This document shows, one piece after another, positions 1 to 16,492 of a DNA stretch of 18,006 nucleotides; position 1 is the stretch's first letter; every line of letters starts with the position of its first letter. The notes below the pieces were generated by a model that searched no databases, was not told the DNA's origin, and saw nothing but the letters and a program-made list of their open reading frames with translations. The translations under genes and the position numbers were made by a program. This DNA comes from Candidatus Hodarchaeum mangrovi (GTDB taxonomy: Archaea; Asgardarchaeota; Heimdallarchaeia; Hodarchaeales; Hodarchaeaceae), in the NCBI GenBank assembly GCA_016839515.1, contig JAEOUE010000081.1, positions 1-18,006 of the forward strand, in the 5' to 3' direction.

Positions 1-744
1 CGAGAAACAGCAGCAGCTATTCAGTTCTTGTATAGGTTTCCTAAAGAAAGAATATTGGAAATCAACTCTAACCAATCATTAGATTTTGATGATTTTATAG
101 TACATGCTTTAGATGCCAATCACTGTGTTGGTAGCTTGATGTACGTTATAGAATCAAAAAATGGAACTAAAGAAGTATTTACTGGAGATTTCAGGTTTCA
201 CAGTAAAATGAAAGAAGAATTTGATTTGATTCAGGGAGCAGAAACACTTTGGGTAGATTTTACATATGGAAAAGACCCAATCTTTAATTTTCCTACTCGC
301 GAGGAAATGATCTCGGATATAATTACTTTTATCCTATCTAGTGAAAAATATCCTGAAAATACAGTTTGGGTTGCAGCGTATCAAATTGGAAAAGAAAATC
401 TTCTAAAAACCTTAAGTAAAGTCTTTAAAGTAAAATTATGGGCTCCTGATTCTAAATTGAGAATTTATAAAGAGATTGGAGGCGAATGGGATATTTTTAC
501 ATCTAATGAAACATCAAAATTTCACGTGGAAAGCCGACGTTTTGTAGAGGATCTCCATGGTGTTGAAGACGAGAAAAAACTGAGTATGCTTAGTGCGTTA
601 CGTATTTCACCAACTGGTTGGGCTTTAAAATTAAAGGATAAGCATTTAGATGTCCATTTTTTTCCTTATTCCGATCATTGCTCGTTTCCCGAAGTTCATG
701 AATTTATTAAGCTAGTAAATCCAAAAAATATAATAAAAATTTAA
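1..744 (+). CDS. SNM1/Pso2/Apollo-like metallo-beta-lactamase beta-CASP nuclease (5' partial)
   Basis: Frame 1 is open from base 1 (RETAAAIQFLYRFP...), so the gene starts upstream of the window and the TTG at 28 is probably internal. Motifs DANHCVGS, FTGDFRF, VDFTY, FPTREE, YQIGKE, PTGW and PYSDHCSFPE match the SNM1A/Pso2 motif series. Confidence 0.85.
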   Translation, partial: RETAAAIQFLYRFPKERILEINSNQSLDFDDFIVHALDANHCVGSLMYVIESKNGTKEVFTGDFRFHSKMKEEFDLIQGAETLWVDFTYGKDPIFNFPTREEMISDIITFILSSEKYPENTVWVAAYQIGKENLLKTLSKVFKVKLWAPDSKLRIYKEIGGEWDIFTSNETSKFHVESRRFVEDLHGVEDEKKLSMLSALRISPTGWALKLKDKHLDVHFFPYSDHCSFPEVHEFIKLVNPKNIIKI

Positions 745-810
745 CTTTTATTTAATAAGATAAAGCTATAGAACTAAGATTAATATAAAAAGCCATATAA
801 TACTAAAAGG

Positions 811-3009
811 TTGTTGAGAAAGATAAAACTAAGAGATATTCGTGGAATTGGTCCTTCTGTTGAAGAAAAATTATTAAAATTTTTTAAAAATGAACAAAAT
901 GTATTAACAGCTTTACATGAATCTAGGATTGCTGAAATTTCTTCGATTGAGGGTATTGGAGAGCGTTTTGCGTTAAGTTTATGTAGAAATCTCCATTATC
1001 AAGAAACAAATGAAAAGTTAGAGACTTTTCTTAAAACTGAGGATGCAATTTTACTCTATAATAGAATAATTGAAATAATTTCTCATTTTGGGAATACTAG
1101 TTATGCAAGATCTAAATTATTCTTATTTTATCCATTACCAATTTCTCTGAAAGAGAAAATTCTAGAAAGACAGGGTAGATCTAAAAAGGCATTAGAATTA
1201 GTTAAACTAATTGAACAGTCCAATTACACCTTACAAGATTATAATTCTTATTTAAAAGCTATTTCACCTTTGAAAGAGAAAACAAAAACTTTCGATACAG
1301 CTTCTAGGCTAATAGCTACAACAGAAAAACATATTTATAATGAAATCCTTTTGAATGAGGTTGGAAAGCACTGTGAAGTCATCTATATTGAAGATATAGA
1401 ACAAGTCCCTCAAATTGTATACGATTATGATGAGATAATCTGGATTGGATCAGATATTCTTTTAGAGGAAAGCTATCCTAATGTTATTAATATTTCAGAA
1501 TCTAAAAAGAATGATATTGTTCAAATAATACCTGAAAAAATTTTACAATATTTTGGGACAAATAAGAGAACTTTAGTTGCTCTATCCAGGTTAGCAAATT
1601 TACTCCAATCGATTTCTCCATCTGTATTGCCTAGTTACATAGGTGACCTTGATTTATCCATGCTTATTAAGATGGGTAGTGATTTAAACAACTTAGATGA
1701 GTCTGGAGAACCAAATCAGAATATAAATGTAGAGTACTTAAGGTTGTTTAATGCAGAAAAAAATTTTGAGATCAAATTAACAGAAATCCAGATGGAATTA
1801 AATGATGAATTGCAAAATAAACTCCAAGGAACAACTGTTGAACTTGGAGGAGAAAAAATATTAGCATTATTAAAAAACATGTCATATACAGATCCAAATT
1901 ATTCTGGAAATGGAGTAAAATCCGATTTACGTGAGTATTTGGATGATGAGCTTCATTTAGCTTTTGAGGAAATTATAACAACAGCTGAGGAAAAGCTAAT
2001 AATTCAGCTAGATTTAAAATCAGACGAAATAGAATATTTTACAGGGATTTTTCCAAGAGAACTTAGATTTCCAATCGATCGGAATGAGGAAAATTATCAA
2101 AAAGCAAGTACTTTTTTAAGACAAAAGAGGGGAATGAAAGCTTTTGAATTAAAGGTAAAAATCGCAAAATCACTTGAAAAATTTACTGAGATATCAAAAA
2201 AGGGACTAAATCTGTTTCTTGAATTAGATTATCTTTTAATGATAGGACGATTTACCCAAGAGTATAAATTGGTACTTCCTAAAATGATTGATGACCATGG
2301 TACTGGCTTAGTAGTTGAAGAAAGTCGAAATTTGTTCTTATGTCAGCAGGAACTTCGTGGGAAAATAAAAGTAAGCCCTGTTTCATATGCTTTAGGTGAA
2401 ATAGGTGTTTTATCCAATAAGGTTAAAGGAGAACGGGTAATTCTTCTTTCTGGGGCTAATAGTGGAGGAAAGACTTCTTTATTGGTTTCAATCGGGATTA
2501 TAATAATATTAGGCCATATGGGTCTTCCTATTCCATGCAGAGAAGGTATCATAGGAGGATTTAATGAGTTCCACTATTATCGAAAGTCTTCAGGTCAGAT
2601 GGATGCTGGAGCCTTTGAAAGTACTTTGAAGACACTTTCTAATATGATAATGAGCCCCAAATCACGATTAGTACTAGCAGACGAAATGGAAAGCATTTCA
2701 GAACCAGGTGCTTCTGCTCGTGTCATTGCAGCAGTTTTAGATTTATTAAATCATTCACCGAACTCTGTAGGAGTCTTTGTGACGCACTTGGCACAAGAAA
2801 TAGCTAAATATAATAGAGAAGGTTTGAGAATCGATGGAATAGAGGCACAAGGACTTTCTGACGATTTGGAATTATTAGTGAATAGAACTCCAATTTATTA
2901 TAAGTATGCGAAATCAACTCCAGAATTAATTGTTAGAAGATTAGAAAAGATCTCGAAAGGGGAAGAAAAGGCAATCTATTCTTATATTCTAAAAGCATTT
3001 GATTCTTAA
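811..3009 (+). CDS. Archaeal MutS-family ATPase (MutS2/MutS5-like) with N-terminal helix-hairpin-helix motifs
   Basis: HhH motifs IRGIGP and IEGIGE. MutS domain V shows Walker A SGANSGGKT, DAGAFESTL, Walker B LVLADEMES, VFVTHL, RIDGIEA and STPELIV. No mismatch-recognition GxFYE motif and no Smr domain seen. TTG start. Confidence 0.9.
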   Translation: MLRKIKLRDIRGIGPSVEEKLLKFFKNEQNVLTALHESRIAEISSIEGIGERFALSLCRNLHYQETNEKLETFLKTEDAILLYNRIIEIISHFGNTSYARSKLFLFYPLPISLKEKILERQGRSKKALELVKLIEQSNYTLQDYNSYLKAISPLKEKTKTFDTASRLIATTEKHIYNEILLNEVGKHCEVIYIEDIEQVPQIVYDYDEIIWIGSDILLEESYPNVINISESKKNDIVQIIPEKILQYFGTNKRTLVALSRLANLLQSISPSVLPSYIGDLDLSMLIKMGSDLNNLDESGEPNQNINVEYLRLFNAEKNFEIKLTEIQMELNDELQNKLQGTTVELGGEKILALLKNMSYTDPNYSGNGVKSDLREYLDDELHLAFEEIITTAEEKLIIQLDLKSDEIEYFTGIFPRELRFPIDRNEENYQKASTFLRQKRGMKAFELKVKIAKSLEKFTEISKKGLNLFLELDYLLMIGRFTQEYKLVLPKMIDDHGTGLVVEESRNLFLCQQELRGKIKVSPVSYALGEIGVLSNKVKGERVILLSGANSGGKTSLLVSIGIIIILGHMGLPIPCREGIIGGFNEFHYYRKSSGQMDAGAFESTLKTLSNMIMSPKSRLVLADEMESISEPGASARVIAAVLDLLNHSPNSVGVFVTHLAQEIAKYNREGLRIDGIEAQGLSDDLELLVNRTPIYYKYAKSTPELIVRRLEKISKGEEKAIYSYILKAFDS

Positions 3010-3010
3010 T

Positions 3011-3046
3011 GATTTATTTTTTTAGAAGCCATTTTTTGTCTTTTTA
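3011..3046 (+). terminator. Putative oligo-T archaeal terminator after the MutS gene
   Basis: Three T-tracts (T7, T6, T5) immediately follow the TAA at 3009, ahead of the convergent tRNA. Confidence 0.45.
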
Positions 3047-3052
3047 AAGTAG

Positions 3053-3126
3053 TGGGCCGGACCAGATTTGAACTGGCGACCTATTGCGTGTGAGGCAATT
3101 GTCATACCGGGCTAGACCACCGGCCC
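3053..3126 (-). tRNA. tRNA-Val: tRNA-Val(CAC), intronless, CCA not encoded
   Basis: Reverse complement reads GGGCCGG-TG-GTCTAGCCCGGTATGAC-A-ATTGC-CTCACAC-GCAAT-AGGTC-GCCAG-TTCAAAT-CTGGT-CCGGCCC-A: 7-bp acceptor stem, anticodon CAC, archaeal-type TTCAAAT T-loop, discriminator A. Confidence 0.97.
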
Positions 3127-3274
3127 TTGTTTATAAAAGAATCCTCTGTCGATCAAACGCTATTAAAAATCTCTGAGTTTTAATTCTTCTGGAATCGGAT
3201 TATTTTTTACCAGATTAGTTTCTCAAACATTCTTTAATATAGATTGTTAATTCTTGGTTTGTTCCTAATAGATG

Positions 3275-3991
3275 TTATTTTTTATATGCTGGAACAACCT
3301 CAAGAATTAATTGTTCTTGGAGAATATTTATAACTTCTATTGTTTCCGACTCTTCTATAAGGACTTTTGATCGTGCTTTCCAAATTGCTCCTGCTATTTT
3401 GACATTTCCGATTTTGTCTGGTTCAATAGTTGATGTTACTTTTCCGAATTTCCCAATAATGTCTGAAGCCTCCCCTACTATTGGGGGAATTTGTTGAGTT
3501 TTCCTAATCCGTGTCCAAATTAAAATAAAGAAGACACTTATAGATCCAAATCCATAAGCAATCCCTCTTAAGGGATCTTGCCATAAAATCTCTCCACCGA
3601 CTAATCCAATTAAGAATAATCCTAAAAGTACTGGAATAAAAGGTACGATAATACTTAAATCCCCTCCTTGTGATGTAAAAAAGCCCGAAATAATAATGAA
3701 TATAATTATAATCAATGGCCATGTGAATATTTGTGTTTCTGATGATTGAGAGACAAAATCACCTCCGAGGATGAGGGTAATTGAGATGATCAAAATTATA
3801 GGTAACCAGTTTATTACTTCTACTCCTCCTCCTCCAATTAACCACAATAAAATCAGTATAAATATAGATATCCCAAATATTATAAGGCCTAAATCATATA
3901 AAGGCGATAAATTAAGAAATGATCCAATAAAGGTAAGAATAAGACCTAGAATAATCCCTGAAATTGCAAATTCCTGTAATTCTGATGACAT
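3275..3991 (-). CDS. NfeD-family membrane protein (multi-TM region plus C-terminal OB-fold), no protease domain
   Basis: About 6-7 hydrophobic segments, then GKFGKVTSTIEPDKIGNVKIAGAIWKARS...IEVI...LEV, typical of the NfeD C-terminal domain. Confidence 0.85.
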   Translation of the reverse strand: MSSELQEFAISGIILGLILTFIGSFLNLSPLYDLGLIIFGISIFILILLWLIGGGGVEVINWLPIILIISITLILGGDFVSQSSETQIFTWPLIIIIFIIISGFFTSQGGDLSIIVPFIPVLLGLFLIGLVGGEILWQDPLRGIAYGFGSISVFFILIWTRIRKTQQIPPIVGEASDIIGKFGKVTSTIEPDKIGNVKIAGAIWKARSKVLIEESETIEVINILQEQLILEVVPAYKK

Positions 3992-4020
3992 TTAATTTCA
4001 CTTTTTCTACTAATATATTT

Positions 4021-4032
4021 ATCTTTAAAGAT
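4021..4032. promoter_or_regulatory. Palindromic TATA-like element ATCTTTAAAGAT in the divergent nfeD/beta-CASP intergenic region
   Basis: Perfect 12-bp palindrome about 30 nt upstream of the nfeD ATG. The same ATCTTTAW core occurs upstream of hsp20 and the CBS-HPF gene. Confidence 0.4.
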
Positions 4033-4236
4033 TTTTACAAATTGGAACCAATGACTGGAACAATCATATATTTGATTTGATTTTTTTTTATTAAAGCCAC
4101 AAATTAGAACATAAATTAATGAACCAAAAATTTTTCTAATAATTGCAAGGATTATTTTTACTTTAAATCAATAATTTATAACCTAAATAGAAAAAATACA
4201 AATTTCGATAATAATATTGCAGCTTAATTGATAAAA

Positions 4237-5616
4237 ATGCTTGAAATTCGATTTTTTGGCGCTTCGGAATCTATCGGAAAATCATGTGTAATGATTTCTG
4301 ATTATGATAGACAAGTGATTCTCGATGCAGGAATTCAATTACACCCTCGAAGAACTGGTCTTCTTTCCACTGGTCCTAGTCATGTTGATGATTATGCTTC
4401 TGAAACTACTGCAGTTATATTATCTCATGCCCATGTAGATCATTCAGCATATATTCCTGCACTTTATCGTGCAGGATATAACGGTTTAACACACCTGACC
4501 TATCCAACGAAAGATTTAGTAAATATACTTTGGAAAGATCATTTAAAAATTGAAGGGTCAAACCATTTTAATTATTCAAACCTTAAAACAGCAATGCGTA
4601 AAATGAAACAGCATGATTATTCAAAAAAATTCAAGATTGATAATGGAGTCACCTGTGAGCTTTTAGATGCAAGTCATATCCTAGGTAGCGCATGTATTTT
4701 GTTAGATTGGGAGGGGACTAGGATTTTGTATTCAGGTGATTTCAATAATGCAAAGACACCATTTCATGATCCAATAGTTTTCCCCGACCCTGAGGAGCCA
4801 ATTGATATTTTGTTGATTGAAACAACTAATGCAAATCGAAAAATAAACAGTAGAAAAGAAATGACCTCACAATTAACAAAATCGCTTTTAAAATGTTACA
4901 GTCGTGGAGGTAAGGCCATAATTCCTTCTTTTGCTTTGGGAAGATCTCAAGAAATACAATCTTATTTATCTAGTGATTTTGATTCATTTCTAAGGAAATT
5001 TCCAGTGTATATTGATGGAATGATTCTTGAAATGAATTCAGTTTATAATAAATATTTAGATGAAAAATGGGTGTCTCCTAGAGTTTTATTGGATCTAAAG
5101 GAAAAAGGATTTCGTTCACCTTTTGAACATGAAGGAATTCGCTCCATCGATGAGGTTCCTACTTCTGGAGGTAGAATGAAGAAAAGAGAAATGCTTTCTA
5201 ACCAAGAAAATTCAAGTATAATCCTCACAACTTCTGGCATGCTGGAAGGAGGTCCTGTTTACGATTATTTACGTTTGAACGGCTCTGACCAGAAAAATGG
5301 TCTATACATTGTTGGGTACCAAGTTTTAGGAACCATAGGCTCTGATGTAATTTCTGGACAGACTGATTTAGTGTTAATTGATCATCTTGGGAAACCATTT
5401 CGCGTAAATCTTTCACTTGAAGTCCAACAATTTGAGTTTTCAGGGCATTCATCTTTAGAAGGTTTGATTCAAATGGTTAGATATACTTCAGCAAGTAAAG
5501 TATTCGCGATGCATGGAGAACCCGAATCGCAGGAAAAGTTTTCTTCTTCTATAACTAATATTGAAACTGACATTAATATTTTGTCCTCACACGAAATTTT
5601 ACCCCAATATCCTTAA
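4237..5616 (+). CDS. CPSF73-type metallo-beta-lactamase beta-CASP ribonuclease without N-terminal KH domains (aCPSF1b/aCPSF2-like)
   Basis: Motifs LSHAHVDH, HILGS, YSGDF, IETT, PSFALGRSQE, TTSGMLEGG, VGYQ..GT.G, FSGH and MHGE (motif C His, RNA-type). ATG 4237 preferred over TTG 4228. Confidence 0.92.
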   Translation: MLEIRFFGASESIGKSCVMISDYDRQVILDAGIQLHPRRTGLLSTGPSHVDDYASETTAVILSHAHVDHSAYIPALYRAGYNGLTHLTYPTKDLVNILWKDHLKIEGSNHFNYSNLKTAMRKMKQHDYSKKFKIDNGVTCELLDASHILGSACILLDWEGTRILYSGDFNNAKTPFHDPIVFPDPEEPIDILLIETTNANRKINSRKEMTSQLTKSLLKCYSRGGKAIIPSFALGRSQEIQSYLSSDFDSFLRKFPVYIDGMILEMNSVYNKYLDEKWVSPRVLLDLKEKGFRSPFEHEGIRSIDEVPTSGGRMKKREMLSNQENSSIILTTSGMLEGGPVYDYLRLNGSDQKNGLYIVGYQVLGTIGSDVISGQTDLVLIDHLGKPFRVNLSLEVQQFEFSGHSSLEGLIQMVRYTSASKVFAMHGEPESQEKFSSSITNIETDINILSSHEILPQYP

Positions 5617-5652
5617 ATTTAACTTTAATAGAAAAATAAATGAGGATTATCT

Positions 5653-6075
5653 GTGAGTCTCAAAATAAAACTTAGTTCTTTATCACAAAATGAGATTAAT
5701 TCAATTTTAATGGTTGAAGATGATATAGAAGAAGTAGCTTTGTTATTTGGAGTTAGAGATAACAATTTGATTTTTATACGAAATGTAAAGCATGTATCAA
5801 ACATTGACAATTCTTCTACTAGTTTCTCTATTAGTCCATTTGAACTAATTCAAGAGATTAAATCATTTGAATCAATGGGAGAGGAGTTAATTGGGTTTTT
5901 TCATACTCATCCTCTGGGATCTCAACTATACCCATCAAAAAAAGATATTTCCTTTATGTATAATTGGCCATATCCTTATATTTGGATTATTGGTGGAATT
6001 TGGGCTTTAGAGAAAATGAGAATATTCACTTTAAAAGAAAATAATGTCGTAGAGTTAGAATATTCACTTGAATGA
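5653..6075 (+). CDS. JAB1/MPN/Mov34 (JAMM/MPN+) metalloprotease, desampylase/deubiquitinase-like
   Basis: EEVALLFG Glu motif and GFFHTHPLGSQLYPSKKD JAMM motif. GTG start with GAGGA at 5642-5646. Confidence 0.9.
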   Translation: MSLKIKLSSLSQNEINSILMVEDDIEEVALLFGVRDNNLIFIRNVKHVSNIDNSSTSFSISPFELIQEIKSFESMGEELIGFFHTHPLGSQLYPSKKDISFMYNWPYPYIWIIGGIWALEKMRIFTLKENNVVELEYSLE

Positions 6076-6088
6076 TCAATTGTCATCC

Positions 6089-7114
6089 TTAGAGAATGAT
6101 TGGAATATCTGTTCCACACGATTGACATAGGCCATCAAGACTAAGTCCTACTATTTCCGTATGGTATCCTTCCCTTATAATCAATGGATTATTACAAATA
6201 TGGCAAAAAGTATTGGAACCTAGGGGAGTTCGAACATTTCCGAGGTATATATAATTTAAACCAACATCTTTAGCAATTTTATATGCTTTTTCGAGTGTAT
6301 TTAAAGGAGTCAATGGTAAATTAAGGAGTTTATAGTCAGGATGAAAGCGAGAAAAATGGATTGGTGTGTTTGGGCCTAAATTTTCAAATATCCAAGTACA
6401 CAGTTCTTCAATCATCATATCCGAATCATTTTTTGTTGGAATAATTAAATTCGTAATTTCTAAATGCACATTTAACTCTTTAAAAATGGAACATGTGGTT
6501 AAAATTGCTTTCCAATTTGTGGCTCCACAAATTTCTTTGTAAAACTCATCGGAAAATCCTTTAATATCGATATTAGCTGCATCAAGTAACGGGCCTAATT
6601 TTAAGGCTAGATCCTTATTTATATACCCATTGTCAACTACAACCATCTTCAAATTTTTCTCATCAGCTAAATTCGCTATATCTCTAATGTACTCAAATGC
6701 TATCATAGGTTCATTATAGGTGGATGCAATGGAAGGAACCTTTTTTGACTGAGCAATTTTTATGATATCGCTTGGATCCTTTTTTTGTAATCTTGATACA
6801 GATCTTTCCATTGAAATGGAGTAATTCTGACAGTTCAAACACTCCATGTTACATCCATGAGAACCGAATGATAATATTCCAGTTCCAGGAAGAAAATGAT
6901 AAAGGGGCTTTTTTTCAATGGGATCGACTGCTAGAGATGATATTAACCCATAAGTTCTAGGTTTTATCTCACCATTTTGATTCCACCGTGCACCACACCA
7001 GCCAATCTCATTTTCTAATAAGGCACAATACCTAGGACATACAAGACATTGTGATTTTCCTGATTTTAGTTTTTTATAAAATAACCAGTCTTCTGAAGTT
7101 AATTTAAATTCCAT
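6089..7114 (-). CDS. amrS: AmmeMemoRadiSam system radical SAM enzyme
   Basis: N-terminal CLVCPRYC...GWCGAR, DPIEKKPLYHFLPG, CNMECLNC (CxxxCxxC), TYNEP, NIDIKGF, HFSRFHPDY, YIYLGNV and two C-terminal CxxC pairs. Confidence 0.93.
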   Translation of the reverse strand: MEFKLTSEDWLFYKKLKSGKSQCLVCPRYCALLENEIGWCGARWNQNGEIKPRTYGLISSLAVDPIEKKPLYHFLPGTGILSFGSHGCNMECLNCQNYSISMERSVSRLQKKDPSDIIKIAQSKKVPSIASTYNEPMIAFEYIRDIANLADEKNLKMVVVDNGYINKDLALKLGPLLDAANIDIKGFSDEFYKEICGATNWKAILTTCSIFKELNVHLEITNLIIPTKNDSDMMIEELCTWIFENLGPNTPIHFSRFHPDYKLLNLPLTPLNTLEKAYKIAKDVGLNYIYLGNVRTPLGSNTFCHICNNPLIIREGYHTEIVGLSLDGLCQSCGTDIPIIL

Positions 7115-7146
7115 TTTTTTCCCTAATTAATTTATAAAATTAATTT

Positions 7147-7881
7147 TTATCTTATTGTTATTTGGTTTGTGTTTTCATCTTGATCAAGCAATCCTTTTTC
7201 TGTCATTCGCCCCAAGGTTCGTGTGATTATAACTGGAGATATGTGATCTTTTAAAGCTTCTTTTAGCCCATCTATGGAAGTTCTACCAAGATGCATAACT
7301 ATAGCTAAGATGTCTACTTCTGGTATGTCTTCAGCTGATTCTTCTAATAAATACGAAATAACGGAATTTGCTTCTTTTAACTCGTTAATTTCAACACGAA
7401 GCCTTGTAGTTATTTCTTTTTTCTCCTCTAATTCTTGATTGAGTTTTTTCTCGAATTCAGAATTTTCTTGAGTTAATGAAGAAACACGGGTTCTTTTTTT
7501 CGATATTTTTGTATTTATTAATTCATTTTCAGAAAGACTTTGTTTCATTTTTTCTTCTATTTCTTGTAATTGAAATTTTTTTTCTTCTATTTGATTTTTC
7601 TTTTGATTTATTTCTTCTAATGTTACATTTCTTTTGGTAATTATATCATCTTTCGAATTGGCGAGTGTACTGATTTCTTCTTGATGCGAAGCTATCTTTA
7701 CTTCCTGTTCTGTGATCTGATTATCAACTGTTTCTTTTTCTTTGATTAAAGTTTCCAAGTAGTCTCTAGATTCACGAAATTCTTGTGCTCTTGAAAATAT
7801 AAGTTGTTTTATATCATCTGCCAACCGATCTAACGATTCACCACTTCTAATGAATTTTTCACGTATCGTATCAGTATCCAT
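7147..7881 (-). CDS. Uncharacterised long coiled-coil protein with C-terminal winged-helix domain (paralog B)
   Basis: About 170 aa of E/K/Q/L/I-rich heptads, then PEVDILAIVMHLGRTSIDGLKEAL...IITRTLGRMTEKGLLDQDENTNQITI (wHTH pattern). GGAGG SD at 7891-7895 on the minus strand. Confidence 0.8.
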   Translation of the reverse strand: MDTDTIREKFIRSGESLDRLADDIKQLIFSRAQEFRESRDYLETLIKEKETVDNQITEQEVKIASHQEEISTLANSKDDIITKRNVTLEEINQKKNQIEEKKFQLQEIEEKMKQSLSENELINTKISKKRTRVSSLTQENSEFEKKLNQELEEKKEITTRLRVEINELKEANSVISYLLEESAEDIPEVDILAIVMHLGRTSIDGLKEALKDHISPVIITRTLGRMTEKGLLDQDENTNQITIR

Positions 7882-7885
7882 TGAA

Positions 7886-8650
7886 TTAAACCTCCAACTT
7901 AAAAAGATCGATTTTAGTCAATATGGTAATTTCATCTTTCGCTTCATTAAAATCAAGTACTTTTCGTTTTTCTAGTCCACTTAAAACCCTTTTCAAAGTA
8001 GTTTCATCAATACCTAAAGCTGCCTTTATTTCTGTAAGTTTTGAGGTTGAACTTGGTTTCATCGCTAAAAATTTAATTAATCCTACCTCAGGGCTTTGAA
8101 TGTAATCTTTTCGACAAAGAATACGAATGGCTTCAAATTTATTAGTGATTAAATTCTTTTCATTTGTAAGTTTTTCAAATTCTTGAGTTACTAATTTCAT
8201 TCTAGCCTCGTATTTAGGCCTTAATTCGTTATTAATAGTTTCAATCATTGTTAAATCTTTTTCCAAGGATTTTAAAGTTTCATTTAAACCATTATTTTCT
8301 TTAATCAGTGTTTCAAGATCAGTTTTATTTTTAGTTAATTTCGTTTGGAGAGAAGAATTTTCTGTATTAACATTATCTAGTTCCTTCTGTAAATTTTCTT
8401 TTTCTTTTTGAATCTGATCAATTTCAATTTTGAATGTCTCAAGATCATTTGTCAGATCCGAAATTTCTCGTGTATATTCATTTAATTGTTGACGCCGTTT
8501 CCCGATATAATTTTTTAAATTGTCAATATCATTAATAAGAGACTTTAAATCTTCTCTAATTAGTTGTAAGCGTCCTGTGAATTTTGGTATTAATTCTTCA
8601 AGACTTAGTTCAAGTTTTCGAATTTCTTCTGCTGATTTTGGCGTACTCAT
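7886..8650 (-). CDS. Uncharacterised long coiled-coil protein with C-terminal winged-helix domain (paralog A)
   Basis: About 170 aa of heptad repeats, then PEVGLIKFL...SKLTEIKAALGIDETTLKRVLSGLEKRKVLDFNEAKDEITI (wHTH). ATG 8650 (MSTPK) has an upstream GAGAGG and is preferred over 8698. Confidence 0.8.
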   Translation of the reverse strand: MSTPKSAEEIRKLELSLEELIPKFTGRLQLIREDLKSLINDIDNLKNYIGKRRQQLNEYTREISDLTNDLETFKIEIDQIQKEKENLQKELDNVNTENSSLQTKLTKNKTDLETLIKENNGLNETLKSLEKDLTMIETINNELRPKYEARMKLVTQEFEKLTNEKNLITNKFEAIRILCRKDYIQSPEVGLIKFLAMKPSSTSKLTEIKAALGIDETTLKRVLSGLEKRKVLDFNEAKDEITILTKIDLFKLEV

Positions 8651-8721
8651 TAATAATCGTCCTCTCAGAACAATAATGACTATACCTTTAAAAAACATTT
8701 TTGATTTAAAAAGGATATTTA

Positions 8722-8790
8722 GGGAAAAGAAAATTTATATACTAGTTATGAATAATTATATTTGATGTGTATAAAATCTTTAAGTTTAAA
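8722..8790 (+). promoter_or_regulatory. Candidate BRE/TATA promoter(s) of the hsp20 operon
   Basis: Purine-rich GGGAAAAGAAAA followed by TTTATATA (8734-8741), and a second AAAATCTTTAAG element (8773-8784). Confidence 0.45.
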
Positions 8791-8845
8791 AATAGAACGC
8801 ATTTAGCTTTTATTAGATTGATTTTAAAGGATAGTGAATTAAAAG

Positions 8846-9469
8846 TTGTCTGATCCAAATAAAGATGAATATGATGAGGATGATAATTTTCCTAGAAGGC
8901 GGAGACGTCGTGACGAAAGCCCATTCGATGATATTATGAATTATTTCATGAATCAATTCGGAGGAGCTTTTAATTTCGAAAATATATTTGAAAATATGGA
9001 CTATTTTCTTGAGGATCTTTTCAGAAGGTTTAGTGTTTCTGGACCTTTTAGCGATGGTTCTGAATTTCCAGGATTTGTCTGGGGTTTTAGGATGACTAAA
9101 GGACCAGATGGAAGACCTCATATTGAACGGTTTGGTAACACTCCTAGGAAAATTCAAGGATCTGCTGTTCATCCATCTGATGAAAGAGAACCTTTAGTCG
9201 ATGTATTAGAAGATACAAGCGTTCTTCGTGTTATCGCTGAAATTCCAGGCGTAACAAAGCAAGATATCGATCTTTCTGCAACTGAAAATAGTCTTCTAAT
9301 TCAAGCTGAATCAGAAGATGGAAAACGTAAGTACTACAAGGAGCTTGATCTTCCTTGCATAGTGATGCCTGATACTGCCACAGCAAAATTCAAGAACGGG
9401 GTTCTTGAAGTAGAATTGACAAAAAAGCATTGTGATGAAAAAAAGGGTAAGAAAGTGGATATTTATTAA
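8846..9469 (+). CDS. hsp20: Archaeal small heat shock protein Hsp20 (alpha-crystallin domain)
   Basis: GFRMTKGPDGRPHIERFGN, REPLVDV, VIAEIPGV.K.DI, YYKELDLP, ATAKFKNGVLEV and a C-terminal VDI (IxI-type) motif. TTG start with an in-frame TAA just upstream. Confidence 0.95.
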   Translation: MSDPNKDEYDEDDNFPRRRRRRDESPFDDIMNYFMNQFGGAFNFENIFENMDYFLEDLFRRFSVSGPFSDGSEFPGFVWGFRMTKGPDGRPHIERFGNTPRKIQGSAVHPSDEREPLVDVLEDTSVLRVIAEIPGVTKQDIDLSATENSLLIQAESEDGKRKYYKELDLPCIVMPDTATAKFKNGVLEVELTKKHCDEKKGKKVDIY

Positions 9470-9519
9470 ATAAAAGAATTTTTTTGGATAAGAAAATCAG
9501 ATTCACTTGGTGTAGTTTT

Positions 9520-10308
9520 ATGTATTTGGAAACATTAACAGATGAAATAGAAGATTGGATAGAAAAAGCAGAAGAAACAGAGAATCTTCGTTTGATATAC
9601 AAAGGAGAAACAAATCATTTAAAGGGAGCCATTGCAATCGAATTACTAGGATATTATGGTTCAGTTGATAAGCTTATTACAAAAGAACTACTAAAAGTGA
9701 GTCAAAAATCTCAGAAAATAGCTGGTTTCTTTTCCAATTATTTTAATGAAATGATTGAATTTAGTTTAGGGGAAATTCTCCTTCCAATCTCGGTTTTAAG
9801 TCTAAACATTGGAAATCAACCTTATATATTAACTACAACGAATTTTGCTATCCCAGATATCATATGTTATCGATTATCCGAAGAATTATTTTCTTTTTAT
9901 CAACAGTTGAATGTTTCCAAAATATTATTGATTGATGGGGTCTATTCTAGGCATCGATCATTACATCAACTTCCAAAAGTTCATAGAATCATCTCCAACG
10001 ACTTTAAGATTCATATGATATCTAAAGAGAAATCTAATTTTTCCATGATGGGTCAAATTGCCAGCTCATTTCTTACCTATCGGAGTCAAATACCAAATAT
10101 TCCTTTAGAAATAGTTGCTGTGGAATCTTTTGCTGAATATGATCCAATATCAGCTTATGAACTCCTTAAATTTTTAAATCAAGAATTTAATATCGATAAT
10201 GGATTAGAATACATCAAAGAATTAGCTGATGATTATAAAAGAGAGATAAATGCTGTTTATGAAGAAGAAAAAGAAGAAGAAAACCCCGAAAAATTCTTTT
10301 TCACTTAG
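9520..10308 (+). CDS. Divergent PAC2-family proteasome assembly chaperone-like protein (PbaA/PbaB-like)
   Basis: LLGYYGSVDKLITKELL resembles the family GxxGxVxxIxxxxL helix. VSKILLIDG strand, YDPISAYELLKFL motif, and an acidic tail ending FFT. ATG 9520 with upstream GGTG preferred over TTG 9484. Confidence 0.65.
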   Translation: MYLETLTDEIEDWIEKAEETENLRLIYKGETNHLKGAIAIELLGYYGSVDKLITKELLKVSQKSQKIAGFFSNYFNEMIEFSLGEILLPISVLSLNIGNQPYILTTTNFAIPDIICYRLSEELFSFYQQLNVSKILLIDGVYSRHRSLHQLPKVHRIISNDFKIHMISKEKSNFSMMGQIASSFLTYRSQIPNIPLEIVAVESFAEYDPISAYELLKFLNQEFNIDNGLEYIKELADDYKREINAVYEEEKEEENPEKFFFT

Positions 10309-10319
10309 GAGATAATAGA

Positions 10320-10886
10320 ATGAGCGATAACCCAATTTCAGAATTAGAATTAATATTAAAAATTTTAACATATACTATTGAAACCAAAGGAATCGTTACA
10401 ATAGAGGAAATCGATGAAATTCTTCATCTCTTATCAAACCGAACCCGTAGAAGAATGCTATCGGAATTAGCAACAGGTGAAGGGTTTGTAAATGAATTAG
10501 TAAAAAGATTAGATGATCATCCTCAATCAATTACTCGACATTTAGAGGTTTTGAAAAAAAGTAAATTAATAACTGGACAAGAAAGACCAGGAATAGGTCG
10601 AAGAGGAAGACCTCGGCTTTATTATGCATTATTTCCAGATCTTGCAGAAATTATAACTAGAAAGCCTTCTTCTATATCAGAATCTAATGAACAATATATT
10701 TGTAGCAGTTTTCCTAGATTAAACGCAATAAAAAATCAATTAGAAGGTCGAATAACTCATAATGGACAAAAGAAAATGATTTCTGAAGTACAAAACATAA
10801 AAAAGGAACATGAAAATGCCCTAGAATTATGTAGCAGTATTCTTTCTCAATTAAATAAAAAAGTGACCAAGATACCCATTGAATAG
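10320..10886 (+). CDS. ArsR-type winged-helix transcriptional regulator, Phr/HSR1-like heat-shock regulator
   Basis: LSNRTRRRMLSEL..GFVNEL....SITRHLEVLKKSKLI....RGRPRLYY pattern and a helical C-terminus. AGGAG SD overlaps the upstream stop. Co-oriented with hsp20. Confidence 0.85.
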   Translation: MSDNPISELELILKILTYTIETKGIVTIEEIDEILHLLSNRTRRRMLSELATGEGFVNELVKRLDDHPQSITRHLEVLKKSKLITGQERPGIGRRGRPRLYYALFPDLAEIITRKPSSISESNEQYICSSFPRLNAIKNQLEGRITHNGQKKMISEVQNIKKEHENALELCSSILSQLNKKVTKIPIE

Positions 10887-10945
10887 GGGAATGGAGAGTA
10901 TAAACAGTTTCTATTCAAAATCATAAATATCAAAGAAAAATTTAT

Positions 10946-13177
10946 TTGTATTTTGATAAAGAAAAAGCGTGTGAAACGTTTATAGAATTCTTAGTTGTAT
11001 TAAAAAAAGTCGGAAATACCTCATTAAGAGGTATTATTGCTTCAGATGATGTGAATTTATTCAAACAAGAGGATTCGATATTAAAATCGTTTATAAGACT
11101 AAAATCAATTTCCCAAGATGAATCTTTCCAAATTCTTGGTCAATCTTTTGATCTAGTATTATTGGATTTTAGAAGAGTTTTTAATCCCAATAAAATATGT
11201 CAATTCATTGAAACAGTTAGAGGTGGAGGACTAATTTTTATAATAGGATCTAAGTATCCAGAGTGGTTATCACAAGTAAATAAAGGTAAATTCTCTCAAT
11301 ATTCAACAATAAATCCTTCTAATATAAATGATGAGTGTAAAGACAAATCTTATTTATTAAAATGGTTTATTACTAGTCTATTAGAAAAATTTCAATTTAA
11401 GTGCGATTTCACAGATGCTAATGAAATTTTTCAATCTTTTAATCTCATGCCTTATGAATATAAACTTGATCAATACTTTAACGATATTTTAGTTTCTAAA
11501 GATCAGAAGGAAATTTTAGATGAGTTCCAAACAAAGTTACCTAAGTCTCTAAATCGAAATATATGCATCATTATAACAGCAGACCGAGGAAGAGGCAAAT
11601 CAACACTAATTGGTCTAGCCTTGGCAAATTTCTTGATAAATACACCCAAAAAACGCTTAAATATCGTTATAACTGCTCCAGATATAAGAAACACACAAAC
11701 AATATTTGAAATGATTACTCATTACTGCTCAGTAAAAGGAGTTCATTTTTCATCGAAAAAAAAAGACGATTGGATTTTTGAAGTTAAAATAGGTTTAAAG
11801 GGAAAAGTAGGATTCGTTAATTCAAGTAATCTTGGGAATATTAAGAAATTAGATCTGTTAGTTATAGAAGAAGCTGCAACATTACCAGTAGACTCACTTA
11901 AATCCCTTTTTAAGCAAAAAGTCCCTAAAATTATGGTTAGTACTGTACATGGATATGAAGGAAGTGGGAGGAGTTTTCAAATCAAGATAACAAACCCTCT
12001 AAAGCGTCAGAAACAGATAAATTATAATCAATACACTCTTAAGCAACCAATTAGGTATTTAGAGGATGATAAAGTAGAAAATTTTCTTAATTATGTCTTT
12101 TTTTTAGATGCTGAACCTCCCCTTATTAATAAAGAAATTTTAACAAAGATAAAGAATGATTTTTCGTTAACTCAATATCCTGAAGTAGGAAAGCATTTAA
12201 TAGAGAGCAATTATCAAGTTTTACATGATCATATAGGAATTTTAGTATATTCACACTACAGAAATCAACCAAATGATCTTTTAGTGCTATGTGATTCTAT
12301 TAATCATTTTTTAGTAGGATTCAATTTAGTAAACAATGAAAATACTCACTTTCTTCTTGTATCAACTCAGTTCTCTCAGGAAGGAAGTATGAATGATAAT
12401 GTAATCGATTATGTTGAATCGGGAAAATTCATTGAAGGAAATTTGATTCCTACAGTAGCAATAAGACATTTTTCGAGAGATTTTGCCAGATTGAAAGGTT
12501 TAAGAATTGTTAGGATTGCTGTCCATCCCGAATTTATAAATCAGGGGTATGGCCGAAAAGCAATCGAATTGATTTTAGATTATTTTTATCAATTCGATTG
12601 GATAGGAGTGAGTTTTGGAGCAAATGTAAAGTTGGTTAAATTTTGGAGAAAATTTGGTTTTTATTCAGTTCATCTCAGACCGATCAAAACTCCTGAGACT
12701 GGTGAATGGAACCTTATTATGATAAGACCACAATCTAATCAATCCGAAGAAATCATAAACCAAGCATCCCGTGATTTCATTTTACAATTCATTGAACTTT
12801 TAAAACAATCTCTCCACTCGATGTCTTATGAATTAGTTCAAGAAATATTAAAATCTTGCTCATCCTACCCACAATATAAACCATTTATTTCTCATAGTGG
12901 AAAATTACGGGTTGAAAATTATTTAACAGGAAAAATTAACTTTTTATTAGCAGTAGATGTTATGTATGAGCTCTCCAAAACATATTTTATATGTCAAAAT
13001 TTTCCTAGGTTGAGTTCTGCTCAAGAAGGATTGTTAATAAGTCGAGTACTTCAGGGGAGGTCATGGGGACAAACACGAGGAAAATCAGGTTTAGATTGGG
13101 AAACATCGCATACATTAATGAGAAAGGCGATTCAAAAATTGTATAATGAAATATTTAGAGTTTTAAGCATCGAATGA
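10946..13177 (+). CDS. tmcA: tRNA/RNA cytidine N4-acetyltransferase TmcA/Nat10 (helicase plus GNAT)
   Basis: ETVRGGGL, TADRGRGKST, STVHGYEGSGRSF, PIRY..DD.VE, HYRNQPNDL, GNLIP, RIVRIAVHP...QGYG, GVSFGA, FW.K.GF and PETGE. Confidence 0.95.
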   Translation: MYFDKEKACETFIEFLVVLKKVGNTSLRGIIASDDVNLFKQEDSILKSFIRLKSISQDESFQILGQSFDLVLLDFRRVFNPNKICQFIETVRGGGLIFIIGSKYPEWLSQVNKGKFSQYSTINPSNINDECKDKSYLLKWFITSLLEKFQFKCDFTDANEIFQSFNLMPYEYKLDQYFNDILVSKDQKEILDEFQTKLPKSLNRNICIIITADRGRGKSTLIGLALANFLINTPKKRLNIVITAPDIRNTQTIFEMITHYCSVKGVHFSSKKKDDWIFEVKIGLKGKVGFVNSSNLGNIKKLDLLVIEEAATLPVDSLKSLFKQKVPKIMVSTVHGYEGSGRSFQIKITNPLKRQKQINYNQYTLKQPIRYLEDDKVENFLNYVFFLDAEPPLINKEILTKIKNDFSLTQYPEVGKHLIESNYQVLHDHIGILVYSHYRNQPNDLLVLCDSINHFLVGFNLVNNENTHFLLVSTQFSQEGSMNDNVIDYVESGKFIEGNLIPTVAIRHFSRDFARLKGLRIVRIAVHPEFINQGYGRKAIELILDYFYQFDWIGVSFGANVKLVKFWRKFGFYSVHLRPIKTPETGEWNLIMIRPQSNQSEEIINQASRDFILQFIELLKQSLHSMSYELVQEILKSCSSYPQYKPFISHSGKLRVENYLTGKINFLLAVDVMYELSKTYFICQNFPRLSSAQEGLLISRVLQGRSWGQTRGKSGLDWETSHTLMRKAIQKLYNEIFRVLSIE

Positions 13178-13417
13178 TGATTTTCTAATTGAGTTCTGAA
13201 ATCCTCGTGCTTTGTGTTTATCAATCTGAATTACACAACAAACTGTGGTAAAAGAACATGCGCCGATCGGTGAATAGCGAACATCCTTTAAACAATATAA
13301 TAGCGATCCTTTATTACAGGTACAAATCGTGAGATCATGAGAACTAGCAAAGGAATCATATATTTTTTGTTTTGGGGGCTTCGTCAATTCATTAAAAAAA
13401 GATTGCCAGTTTGACAT
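13163..13417 (-). CDS. Small cysteine-rich hypothetical protein (84 aa)
   Basis: ORF MSNWQSFF... with 6 Cys (CTC, C, C, CC). GTGAT SD-like motif upstream of ATG 13417. Overlaps the tmcA 3' end by 15 nt. Confidence 0.45.
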   Translation of the reverse strand: MSNWQSFFNELTKPPKQKIYDSFASSHDLTICTCNKGSLLYCLKDVRYSPIGACSFTTVCCVIQIDKHKARGFQNSIRKSSFDA

Positions 13418-13905
13418 ATTTATCACAATCAAGCTTGAATATTCTTCAAACATCGAATGTTATTGTATCTAATTTTATGGCAATTAATAGTGAGATAATA
13501 TCTAGAACATATCCTATGAATATCATGTAGATAATATTCCTGAAATTTTAATCATTTCAAATGAAAATTTATAATGCCGTTAATTCCTGTGGTGAATTTT
13601 TATAAAATATCTTCTCTAAATACAATACTTTACGAAAATTTCAATTTTTAATCCTTAAAAATATTATAGTGTTAGTTCTTAACAGGAATATGAATAATAA
13701 AGACAAAGTACTAATTTTAAATGCCTTTGAAGCTGAATATAAGAATAAGAACTTTCCTAAAAATCATGTTTTAAAAACATCCCATATCTAATTAATTCAT
13801 TGCTTCTGGAATCAAAAAATACAAATTTCAAAAATCCAATAAAGGATATAGTTAGTTGGCATTTGTGAAAAAAATCTATTATTTAAAACCTGTAGATGAT
13901 GTCTT

Positions 13906-15216
13906 ATGAACGCTACAGATTTGGTATTACTCCTTATTGTCATTGGAATTATAATTATTATAATCATATCTTCTCGTTCTTCTTCTTCTGGGAAAAAACT
14001 TAGAAAAGGTTCCCAATTAGAGCGAAGAGGACAATTTTTAGAAGCTTTGGACTACTATGCCAAAGTCTCACTTGACCAAGCAATTAAATTGGTATTAAGA
14101 ACCCCAGAAGCTTCTCAAATTTTAGCACTTAGAAGATTAGAAAAAAAATTTCATCCTAGGACAATAGAACAGGCATTTATTCGATTAGCCCGTACTTTAA
14201 TAAATAATAATGATATAAATGCTGCTGCAATGGCATATATTCTTGCAAACAAACCATTTGCTGCTTCCAAAGTCTTTATCGATAATGGCGGATTAGAATA
14301 TGTTCCTAGATCTGTACAGATAATTGACCAATATCCCTCATTGATACATGATAGAAATCAAGCAATCAGAAATCTCGCTCGACATGCATATAATACAAGA
14401 AAGTTCCAAGAAGCGGCAGAACTTTTACGTACAATAGGAGCTAATGAAGAAGCCAATACAGTTTTAATAGCAGCTACGACTGAAATGAGGAAGCAAGGAA
14501 TGGACAAAGAAGCTGAAAATTATATAAGTCGTGCAGGCCAACCAAATATTGCTGTCCAACATTATCTAGAGGAAGTTAAGAAAGAGCTAAATGATGGAAA
14601 TATAGAGAAAATGCGTCGATCCTTGAATTATGCGCGAAATATTACAGAAAAACTTTCAAACGTTAAGAAAAATAATGATGAATCTTTAAACGATCTAATA
14701 AGTCAAGTTAATGAATATGATCGTCTTTTGAAAACTTTGGATTCTGCTCGAGACATTTTACGAAGACATCAGACGAATCAGGCCGTTGCACTTTATGATG
14801 AACTTTTAGAAGGTCTTGGATCAGATGTACCTGCTTCTATCCTTGCAGAAGCCGCTTTGGCTAATGAAAAAGAAAATCCTAGAATTGCAGCTGAATTGTA
14901 CAGGCAAGCATCTGGAAAAGCAAGTTCTTCTAGAGCTGCTCAATCGTTTAATTTAAGAGCAAAAAAATTGGAAATTCTTTTAGAAACACCAACAAAATCA
15001 CAACAGATAATTGTAGAAAATATTGAAGCAGATGTACAAGAATCATGTATTGTTTGCAGAGCGATAATAAACAATCGTGAATCGCTTGTTAGATGTCCTG
15101 AATGTGGATCTCCTGCTCATTATGCACATCTGGCAGAATGGTTGAAAATTCGTGGGGTTTGTCCAATCTGTAAGAAGAGAGTAAAGCTAAATAGACCCGA
15201 AAAATTAAGATTTTAA
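13906..15216 (+). CDS. Membrane-anchored alpha-solenoid (TPR/clathrin-repeat-like) protein with C-terminal RING finger, putative E3 ligase
   Basis: N-terminal TM helix LVLLLIVIGIIIIIII, a Ser linker and basic residues. Ala-rich helical repeats follow (AAMAYILANKPFAASKVF, FQEAAELL...EEA, QAVALYDEL, AAELYRQA). RING CIVC-x12-CPEC-x4-HYAH-LAEW-x6-CPIC at 15046-15171. Confidence 0.85.
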   Translation: MNATDLVLLLIVIGIIIIIIISSRSSSSGKKLRKGSQLERRGQFLEALDYYAKVSLDQAIKLVLRTPEASQILALRRLEKKFHPRTIEQAFIRLARTLINNNDINAAAMAYILANKPFAASKVFIDNGGLEYVPRSVQIIDQYPSLIHDRNQAIRNLARHAYNTRKFQEAAELLRTIGANEEANTVLIAATTEMRKQGMDKEAENYISRAGQPNIAVQHYLEEVKKELNDGNIEKMRRSLNYARNITEKLSNVKKNNDESLNDLISQVNEYDRLLKTLDSARDILRRHQTNQAVALYDELLEGLGSDVPASILAEAALANEKENPRIAAELYRQASGKASSSRAAQSFNLRAKKLEILLETPTKSQQIIVENIEADVQESCIVCRAIINNRESLVRCPECGSPAHYAHLAEWLKIRGVCPICKKRVKLNRPEKLRF

Positions 15217-15322
15217 TTTCTCAAATATATTTTCAGTTTGAGTATAAAGTTATTATATCTTTATAAATTTAAACATTTACAGAAAATCTTCTGATTGCGA
15301 ACTTTGTTTAGGAGTATAAATA

Positions 15323-16486
15323 ATGAATTTTCATAAGACTCTTCAAATAAAAATTATTGAATTACCTCGACTTGACCGAAATCAACAACTAGCTAAAGCC
15401 ATTTCTCTTCTTAAGGAAGGATATGAAGTGGTTCTTATCCAAAATGAAGAAAAAAAATATGAGGGAATAATACGGACTCATGATGTTATAGGTAAAGGGA
15501 TAAATCCAGCTGCCTCCTGTAAGACCTATATGAATAAAACTGTCCCATCGATATTAAAAGAAGAACTGATCTCCGTTGAGCAAGTAGGGAATTATATGCT
15601 TGAAGGGAAATCAAGATTTATTCCTGTGTTAGATGAACAATTGAGGATTCTCGGTGCAATAAAGGATACACAGATATTAGAGAAAATGAGGTTAAAATTT
15701 GATCAATTTTTAGAGAATTCGTTAGAAAATGTAGTTAATTGGGATTTAAAAACATTAAAATCATCCGATACAATTGGGAATGCCATAGCAAAGATGAGAG
15801 AGTTTGGTTTTAGTCGAATACCAATTTTAGATGAACAATCTGAATTGCAAGGAATAGTAATGAATAGATCTTTACTTAAGACACAAATTGAAAAAAAAAC
15901 TACTTCTGGTGATTTTGGAGGAAAAGAGAAAGATTGGCATCTTTTACCTGTAGGAGATTTCGTTTCCGAGACAGAGACCATAAAGATAAATACTGGAATA
16001 TTAGAAGTCTATGATCGGATTGTTAATTCAAATGAACATACTTTAATAGTAGATGATCAAACTAGATACGGGATAATTACAGCACTTGATTTAATTAAAT
16101 TTCTGCTTACATCAGAGAAGGGGATATCTGACTACATAATCAACATCCTTCAGGCTCCTGATGATGAAGTCCAGTCCCATGCGATTAGAAAGACACAAGC
16201 TCTGTTAAATCGTGAAAAACGTTTATTAGGAACTAGTGGAACTGTAAAAATTCGTTTTAAAAGGAATATGTCACAATCAAAAAGGGGTCAATATTCTATT
16301 ACTGCAACAATTCAATTGATATCTGACAATGGGCATAATTTTAGTAGTGAAGCTACAGATTTTGGAGCTGAAAAAGCTGTAAATAAAGCACTTGATAATA
16401 TATCAAGAATAATTTCTAATTCTAAAAAAAGAGCATTAGAACAGAGATTAAAGAGTAAAAGCTTAAGAAAATTGACCGAACTTTAA
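15323..16486 (+). CDS. Four-CBS-domain protein fused to a C-terminal HPF/RaiA-like domain (archaeal Hib-type ribosome hibernation factor)
   Basis: CBS signatures YEGIIRTHDV, RFIPVLDE...LGAI, SRIPILDE...LQGIV and YGIITALDL. C-terminal beta-alpha-beta-beta-beta-alpha segment ending FSSEATDFGAEKAVNKALDNISRII..SKKR. AGGAG SD at 15310-15314. Confidence 0.8.
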   Translation: MNFHKTLQIKIIELPRLDRNQQLAKAISLLKEGYEVVLIQNEEKKYEGIIRTHDVIGKGINPAASCKTYMNKTVPSILKEELISVEQVGNYMLEGKSRFIPVLDEQLRILGAIKDTQILEKMRLKFDQFLENSLENVVNWDLKTLKSSDTIGNAIAKMREFGFSRIPILDEQSELQGIVMNRSLLKTQIEKKTTSGDFGGKEKDWHLLPVGDFVSETETIKINTGILEVYDRIVNSNEHTLIVDDQTRYGIITALDLIKFLLTSEKGISDYIINILQAPDDEVQSHAIRKTQALLNREKRLLGTSGTVKIRFKRNMSQSKRGQYSITATIQLISDNGHNFSSEATDFGAEKAVNKALDNISRIISNSKKRALEQRLKSKSLRKLTEL

Positions 16487-16492
16487 TAATCT

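Follow-up and report, generated by a model that had tools for sequence, protein, structure and literature searches.

What do two small, adjacent and similarly built proteins of an Asgard archaeon form together, and what might their product connect? The question is raised by a stretch of 18,006 nucleotides (nt) from Candidatus Hodarchaeum mangrovi (contig JAEOUE010000081.1, positions 1 to 18,006; hereafter the window), in which two consecutive genes, A and B, each encode a long coiled-coil rod followed by a C-terminal winged-helix (wH) head. Results of our analysis indicate that a heterodimeric rod with twin wH heads is real and uncharacterised, and that its structure is well supported in silico. 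Judging from sequence statistics, A and B almost certainly pair side by side as rods. It is also probable, in our opinion, that the two proteins form an obligate, parallel, in-register heterodimer which acts as a fixed-length protein adaptor. A description of this pair was not found in the literature on Asgard coiled-coil proteins, winged-helix proteins, cryo-electron tomography or proteins of the Hop2/Mnd1 type.

A and B are paralogues. Their end-to-end alignment has 24% identity (BLASTP E 1e-5), and the comparison of the profiles of both families (A1, made from 36 of the 73 A hits, and A2, made from 37 of the 67 B hits) by hhalign gives 96.9% and an E-value of 1.5e-10 over 180 columns, the heads included. 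This is what an earlier note, made from the DNA sequence of the window, had proposed when it described the genes as products of a duplication with collinear heads. The 73 A-like homologues are nearly all of 253-255 amino acids (aa) and the 67 B-like ones nearly all of 243-245 aa, and proteins of such near-constant length in such numbers indicate that the architecture of A and B is not a matter of chance. Scans of the whole window proteins with Pfam and NCBIfam models returned coiled-coil noise only (GAS, Filament, and SMC, all far below cut-off); as none of these models passes its cut-off, the former statement that the proteins belong to no recognisable named family can be retained. In the ESM Atlas, the homologue P0009 led only to unnamed Promethearchaeota clusters and to one weak Bathyarchaeota HTH_24 lead at 0.82.

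The rods of both proteins are continuous and equal in length. Heptads run unbroken from about residue 8 to about residue 180 in A as well as in B, the phase changing once, near residue 150; this agrees with the approximately 170 aa of nearly uninterrupted heptads noticed before. When the heptad phase is anchored at the head, it is constant from about position -160 to position -38 and shifts by +4 (a stutter) near position -37 in both proteins; a second shift, near position -160, is present always in B and in about half of the lineages in A. Ten chains were given an offset of one or two residues from the same heptad analysis. The core positions are occupied by Ile or Val at a in 38-39% and by Leu at d in 40-46% of cases, and the combination of Ile/Val at a with Leu at d is typical of two-stranded coils. 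The full-length AlphaFold2 (AF2) model of B, based on an alignment of 39 sequences drawn from the whole phylum, has a predicted local distance difference test score (pLDDT) of 87 and consists of a helix of residues 3-171, a short helix of residues 173-181, and a winged helix. Counted from Met1 up to the PE motif with which the head begins, the rods of all 34 gene pairs compared have 182-189 residues (A) or 182-187 residues (B), and those of the two window proteins have 186 each, so the rods are length-matched, as had been supposed. This length is constant despite the fact that the rods can barely be aligned between classes. In Hodarchaeales, conservation is far better in the first ~70 residues of either rod than in its middle, and many invariant charged residues of this N-terminal part fall outside the core positions. 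Such conservation suggests that the N-terminal third of the rods may serve as a docking surface or as an end-to-end junction.

The pairing of the rods was assessed by the charge pairs at 34 g-e' contacts of the central segment in 34 gene pairs (those of the window and of loci L002-L018 and L020-L035, with L019 left out), and means were calculated for 17 lineages, i.e., the window and 16 distant ones. The mean score is +7.18 for A-B, -0.59 for A-A, and +0.12 for B-B. When B is shifted by 7 to 28 residues either way, the score falls to between -1.3 and +0.7, and the best antiparallel offset reaches +1.7. Non-cognate A and B partners score -0.13 (standard deviation 3.8), and the cognate mean was reached by none of 20000 derangements. 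The A-B score exceeds those of both homodimers in 13 of the 17 lineages and in 24 of the 34 pairs. The preference for a parallel, in-register heterodimer postulated in the earlier note is thus supported by charge complementarity, which is higher than that of homodimers, of shifted registers, and of the antiparallel arrangement. The neck, by which we mean the last 16 residues of the rod, carries a net positive charge in A (32 of the 34 pairs, mean +2.4) and a net negative one in B (all 34, mean -3.9). An internal control is offered by family f31, which has one gene only (36 of 41 genomes, one match in each). In 18 sequences of this family (20 loci were fetched; L047 and L061 were dropped, their open reading frames (ORFs) being broken or short), the homotypic score is +0.24 per contact; in the two-gene lineages, A-B scores a similar +0.21, and A-A as well as B-B score about 0. 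The single-gene rod of f31 is by this measure self-complementary. Taken as a prediction from the g-e' pattern, the association of A with B would be a physical heterodimerisation.

The heads of both proteins are winged helices and are homologous to each other, in accordance with the former reading of the sequence; this assignment is based on the topology of AF2 models, on VIA-align Z scores of 8-10, and on the hhalign comparison. Both heads open with P187-E188 and are roughly 60 residues in size. The AF2 model of the A head (residues 170-254, alignment of 16 heads) has a pLDDT of 68 and the topology helix-strand-helix-helix-strand-strand. In the B head, the helices comprise residues 187-198, 203-209, and 216-228, and the strands residues 200-202, 232-235, and 240-243. 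The Z scores of VIA alignments to wH domains are up to 10.2 for the A head and about 10 for the B head (root-mean-square deviation 1.1-2.0 across 54-61 residues). The structural search with the heads, which had been recommended in the earlier note, gave generic wH matches with many families tied: MarR/SarA, IclR, Zalpha, Rpa2, MCM, Hop2, cullin WHB, Scc1-C, and ESCRT-II all score 8-10, and no family stands out. The top Foldseek match of the A head is IclR (E 0.016), and the profile search of the Protein Data Bank (PDB) with the heads indicated IclR (E 0.0016), MarR (0.029), and ArsR (0.06). Among the Pfam models of the winged helix-turn-helix (wHTH) that were tested (PF01047, PF12802, and PF09339), MarR_2 and HTH_IclR score 12.1 against 27 bits and 14.0 against 22 bits, respectively, with the A head, and MarR scores 15.7 against 24.6 bits with the B head; all these values are below the gathering cut-offs. 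The fragmentary P0071 is the only homologue to pass MarR_2 (28.1 against 27 bits), and the f31 form matches Fe_dep_repress at 3e-4. In Hodarchaeales, the C-terminal tail that follows the wing of A reads KIDLF.

The charge of the heads bears on the nature of their ligand. Their net charge ranges from -4 to +4; helix 3, which carries about two Lys/Arg residues on average, has a mean charge of +0.2 in A and +0.7 in B, the wings have a mean charge of -0.6, and in both paralogues a conserved [DN]-E occupies the wing turn. Taken as a whole, the proteins are acidic, with Hodarchaeales means of -8 and -11. These electrostatics lend no support to the DNA binding that the earlier note had considered. 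DNA-binding wHTH regulators are unlike these neutral-to-acidic heads, in a comparison drawn without a control set. Because the heads are not basic and the tips of the wings are acidic, a protein adaptor is favoured over a DNA binder, and on this indirect evidence we judge the partner of the heads more likely to be a protein or peptide than DNA.

The pair is nearly Asgard-wide and free-standing. A phylum-wide profile of B has a match at E <= 1e-6 in 139 of the 151 genomes that are >= 92% complete, and matches are present in 69 of 74 high-quality genomes and in 45 of 48 genera; the misses, together with many weak hits, fall in families f14 and f31. Of 400 Asgard genomes, 160 contain frames of ~250-270 aa that match a profile of the head only. 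B directly follows A in 17 of the 18 named loci of Hodarchaeales or with a Heimdall label. In the 18th, L019, which is part of a closed chromosome with a Heimdall label, A runs into a masked run of N (L019:8001-8504) and unrelated sequence, and no B is present in the locus; a B-like protein, P0083, is on record for a contig of equal length. In all 16 distant loci, which represent about a dozen other families, an A-like gene is directly followed by a B-like one in the same orientation, the two overlapping or being at most 27 nt apart. The conservation and synteny of the pair across Asgard lineages, which the earlier note had asked to be checked, are therefore documented by adjacency in both sets of loci. 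Besides the pair itself, no gene is common to the 16 distant loci, and no functional theme emerged when 52 of the 87 ORFs flanking the pairs (about two per side) were scanned with Pfam. In Hodarchaeales, the entire 18-kb neighbourhood, which includes MutS-like and DRMBL genes, is collinear, so the neighbours of the pair in this order carry little weight. All named homologous proteins found in searches with A, B, and the word-indexed A4 bear Asgard labels. The profile search of the whole library with A4 gave 37479 hits at E <= 1e-3 and was swamped by giant coiled-coil proteins with similarity to the rod only; among the best 150 of these hits are 32 full-length proteins of 237-254 aa, and the ten A4 hits that were looked up have a Heimdallarchaeia label or none. 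Owing to this coiled-coil noise, a restriction of the pair to Asgard archaea is not demonstrated.

The layout of the two genes (Table 1) is also in agreement with a joint product. The sizes of the genes, their spacing, and the GGAGG motif in the end of A were described correctly in the earlier note: 4 nt (TGAA, 7882-7885) separate the TAA stop codon of A from the ATG of B. A longer frame of A extends to position 8698. The ATG at position 8650 (MSTPKS) was chosen as the start of A because homologues begin there in alignment A1 and because it is preceded by the GAGAGG motif. A and B would be translated from one bicistronic message with the ribosome-binding site of B inside A, and such a position of this site would favour a 1:1 assembly of coupled products. 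None of the sequencing runs listed for this stretch is recorded as RNA. Neither a Walker A motif nor a hydrophobic stretch resembling a transmembrane helix is present in A or B, as had been recognised.

Table 1. Coordinates of the A-B gene pair, its protein domains and its translation signals in the window (H, helix; b, strand).
Feature	Position	Strand	Details and basis
Gene A, rod + C-terminal winged helix, basic-neck partner	7886..8650	-	254 aa + stop; ORF/translation
Gene B, paralogous rod + C-terminal winged helix, acidic-neck partner	7147..7881	-	244 aa + stop; ORF/translation
A rod, residues 1-186	8093..8650	-	continuous heptad frame, stutter near residue 150; heptad analysis
B rod, residues 1-186	7324..7881	-	heptad frame of A, stutter equally far from head; AF2 helix pLDDT above 90
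A head, residues 187-254, winged helix H-b-H-H-b-b + conserved C-terminal tail	7889..8092	-	AF2, VIA, Foldseek, PDB profile
B head, residues 187-244, winged helix	7150..7323	-	AF2, VIA Z about 10
GGAGG, Shine-Dalgarno sequence for B	7891..7895 (CCTCC on plus strand)	-	within last codons of A, 9 nt before ATG of B
GAGAGG, Shine-Dalgarno-like motif	8661..8666	-	10 nt upstream of ATG of A; read from sequence

Certain known systems resemble the A-B pair in part. Hop2-Mnd1, a cofactor of meiotic recombination in eukaryotes, is a heterodimer of paralogues of ~200-250 aa each, which form a parallel coiled coil with juxtaposed wH domains at one end. A corresponding arrangement, in which two different paralogues run parallel and their wH domains adjoin, is predicted here from the hhalign comparison and g-e' complementarity, and the wH domain of Hop2 (2mh2) is among the tied matches of the B head (Z 9.9). 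However, the wH domains are N-terminal in Hop2-Mnd1 and C-terminal in A and B, the coil is kinked into three segments in the former while B is modelled as a straight helix of ~170 residues, the heads of Hop2-Mnd1 bind DNA whereas those of A and B are not basic, and no sequence similarity between these proteins was found in Pfam scans. Spc24-Spc25 of the kinetochore Ndc80 complex is a paralogous heterodimeric stalk, the twin C-terminal heads of which dock a partner and the N-terminal end of which joins a second coiled-coil dimer. It shares with the A-B pair the heterodimeric coiled-coil stalk and the twin C-terminal heads, but its heads are RWD domains rather than winged helices, it is specific to eukaryotes, and it has no sequence relation to A and B beyond coiled-coil noise. 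An identity of the SMC/Rad50 type, for which an ABC ATPase head and a coiled coil folded back on itself in antiparallel fashion are characteristic, was considered and rejected: the Walker A motif is absent, the NCBIfam SMC model scores 38 against 567 bits and matches the rod only, and antiparallel pairing is disfavoured. The earlier note had likewise separated A and B from SMC proteins.

The closest relatives of both heads in sequence and fold are the MarR, IclR, and ArsR regulators, with which they share the wHTH fold. The window proteins differ from them in scoring below every gathering cut-off, in having their wH domain joined to a rod of 186 residues and paired with a different wH domain, and, in comparison with MarR and IclR, in the absence of MarR dimerisation helices and of the IclR effector domain. 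Archaeal proteins composed of a coiled coil and a C-terminal winged helix (arCOG09748 and arCOG11741), as well as the winged helix of CdvB, have been described, with the winged helices assigned to protein-protein contacts (Makarova et al. 2024, PMC10936438). According to the parts of its main text that concern such proteins, those of arCOG09748 and arCOG11741 are encoded beside Vps4/ESCRT-III and some have extra domains, unlike the free-standing A-B pair, a putative paralogous heterodimer, which is not mentioned in these parts.

How might the A-B particle function? In the mechanism that we propose, the coiled coil of A and B would be an obligate heterodimer, parallel and in register, with a rod of ~170-180 helical residues, or roughly 25-27 nm. 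At its C-terminal end, two different wH heads would lie side by side, held by a charge-complementary neck that is basic in A and acidic in B. The rod would serve as an adaptor or spacer of fixed length; one partner may be docked by the paired heads, and another partner or a second rod by the conserved N-terminal third. The function as an adaptor and the kind of partners are put forward here as predictions.

Several observations weigh against this proposal. The charge test is a heuristic of our own, and the lineages to which it was applied are related by descent. The A-B score fails to exceed those of both homodimers in 10 of the 34 pairs, among them most of the loci L002-L010, which are closely related to the window and in which B-B is on a par with A-B. 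The polar layers in the cores of A and B coincide at a chance level (46 observed, 43.9 expected), and an A2B2 or higher assembly may be formed. Furthermore, in sequence the heads come closest to regulators that bind DNA (IclR, MarR, and ArsR, and Fe_dep_repress in the case of f31), and the f31 gene directly follows the topoisomerase VI genes Top6B-Top6A in 15 of 20 loci, to which one locus with a fragment can be added. Both observations favour a link with DNA; the position beside topoisomerase VI is known from one family and may reflect collinearity alone.

The last two observations, together with the MarR_2 score of P0071, the Lys/Arg residues of helix 3, and the vicinity of MutS-like and DRMBL genes in Hodarchaeales, speak for a DNA-binding chromosome organiser or tether, in which the paired wH heads would clamp DNA as in Hop2-Mnd1 and the rod would bridge DNA to DNA or to another structure, e.g., in decatenation or segregation. 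We consider such a function rather unlikely, as the heads are neutral to acidic, their wings have a conserved acidic turn, the whole proteins are acidic, and the neck of B is strongly so. Moreover, the neighbourhoods with topoisomerase VI and with repair genes are each limited to one family or order, in collinear regions, and recur in none of the 16 distant loci. Quite improbable is a role in ESCRT function or division, with the wH heads binding ESCRT-III or a CdvA-like peptide, in the manner of the wH domains of ESCRT-II and CdvB, and the rod positioning membrane-remodelling filaments. It is brought to mind by the coiled-coil and wH proteins of other archaea encoded beside Vps4/ESCRT-III (arCOG09748 and arCOG11741), by Longin or Roadblock genes near paralogous forms of the pair, and by the conserved short tail behind the wing of A, which could serve as a docking peptide. 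ESCRT-II chains are also among the wH matches (3cuq; 1u5t_B at Z 9.1), but they are tied with many others, and the structural matches are generic. No gene with a Snf7 or Vps4 domain was detected among the genes of the window or among the 52 scanned neighbours in the distant loci, and the two Snf7 genes of the source genome are located on another contig, C153. It is also conceivable that A and B are co-encoded merely as a result of tandem duplication and form independent homodimers A2 and B2 or a conventional wHTH transcription factor with an unusually long dimerisation coil. The homotypic scores in L002-L010, which equal those of A-B, would fit this explanation, and so would the viability of a homodimer implied by the single-gene form of f31; the equal length of the rods and their common stutter could be ancestral inheritance. 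We find it very improbable nevertheless, since the cognate complementarity of A and B is lineage-specific and is lost upon a register shift or an exchange of partners, the A-A and B-B scores average about 0 in the 17 lineages, the charges of the necks are opposite, and adjacency is kept across the phylum. A phylum-invariant length would also be unexpected for a mere dimerisation coil.

The significance of the proposed adaptor heterodimer lies in the fact that a small, nearly universal Asgard gene pair has a sharply defined architecture, with the length of the rod held within a few residues across the phylum. Such conservation of length points to a rod that measures or spans a distance in the cell. 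The hypothesis can be tested directly, as A and B are small proteins of soluble appearance and Asgard strains have been brought into culture, and the partners of the pair could reveal a new piece of Asgard cell organisation. An extension of the proposal, which we regard as improbable, is that two A-B heterodimers meet with their conserved N-terminal thirds and give a bipolar rod of ~50 nm, both ends of which carry a wH pair. It would be a fixed-length, Asgard-wide structural element that bridges, at a set distance, two copies of chromosomal DNA-protein complexes, of ESCRT filaments or of cytoskeletal filaments; the ancestor of Asgard archaea would already have had it, and in eukaryotes it would since have disappeared or been replaced. 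If true, this would make it the equivalent, in prokaryotes, of such two-ended coiled-coil linkers of eukaryotes as the Ndc80-Spc24/25 rod.

Variant forms of the pair are present in three families. In the case of f31, the rod-wH protein has ~223-237 aa (L043-L062), and the order of genes in the cluster is M50/AN1 protease, Top6B, Top6A, the rod-wH gene, a gene of a 331-335 aa protein, and a Roadblock gene, the last two following the rod-wH gene in all 20 loci. The assignment of P0304, which is encoded downstream of the f31 gene, as a protein with a winged helix and a PD-(D/E)xK nuclease was dropped, as no Pfam or PDB match was found; the use of P0304 as a query revealed no homologue in the source genome.

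Lokiarchaeia-like genomes of family f20 contain a second, longer A'-B' pair (L037:3880-5594 and L041:3743-5463), the proteins of which have 283 and 288 aa or 284 and 289 aa; with ~220 and 226 residues, the rods of both partners exceed the usual length by roughly five heptads. The gene before this pair encodes a protein of 675-730 aa, for which a weak ORC-CDC6-like match exists in L041 only, and the gene after it encodes one of 130 aa, with a longin-domain match in L041 only. Three further loci of this family (L036, L038, and L040) contain an extra solitary paralogue each, of 224-235 aa, which is devoid of the ~30 N-terminal residues and has unrelated neighbours (TFIIB, ClpB, P-type ATPase, and M20 peptidase). 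In family f9, two complete A-B pairs are encoded at separate places of the genome (L042 and L064 in G002, L032 and L063 in G003, and L065 and L066 in G004). No orthogonality of these duplicated pairs could be detected by charge complementarity, as cross pairs score like cognate pairs.

The remaining observations concern the surroundings of the pair. A radical SAM enzyme of the AmmeMemoRadiSam system (TIGR04337, 357 against 220 bits) is encoded 32 nt downstream of B (6089-7114, minus strand); its gene is a neighbour of the pair in all 17 intact Hodarchaeales loci vs. none of the 16 distant ones, and partner genes of the AmmeMemo system are not apparent in the window. The gene at 811-3009 (plus strand) encodes a 732-aa MutS-like ATPase, which scores just below the cut-off of MutS_V (30.1 against 30.2 bits) and lower against the KamC-like (69 against 300) and MutS2 (50 against 400) models, and which is kept beside the region in 14 Hodarchaeales loci. 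A 436-aa protein encoded at 13906-15216 (plus strand) matches no Pfam or NCBIfam model; its N-terminal part includes a hydrophobic segment, and its C-terminus is Cys-rich, with a RING-like motif that can be discerned by eye. The Hsp20 and PAC2 genes adjoin each other in the window (9469-9484) but are ~2.2 kb apart in L002-L018, which suggests that a gene is missing in the window or has been inserted in the related loci.

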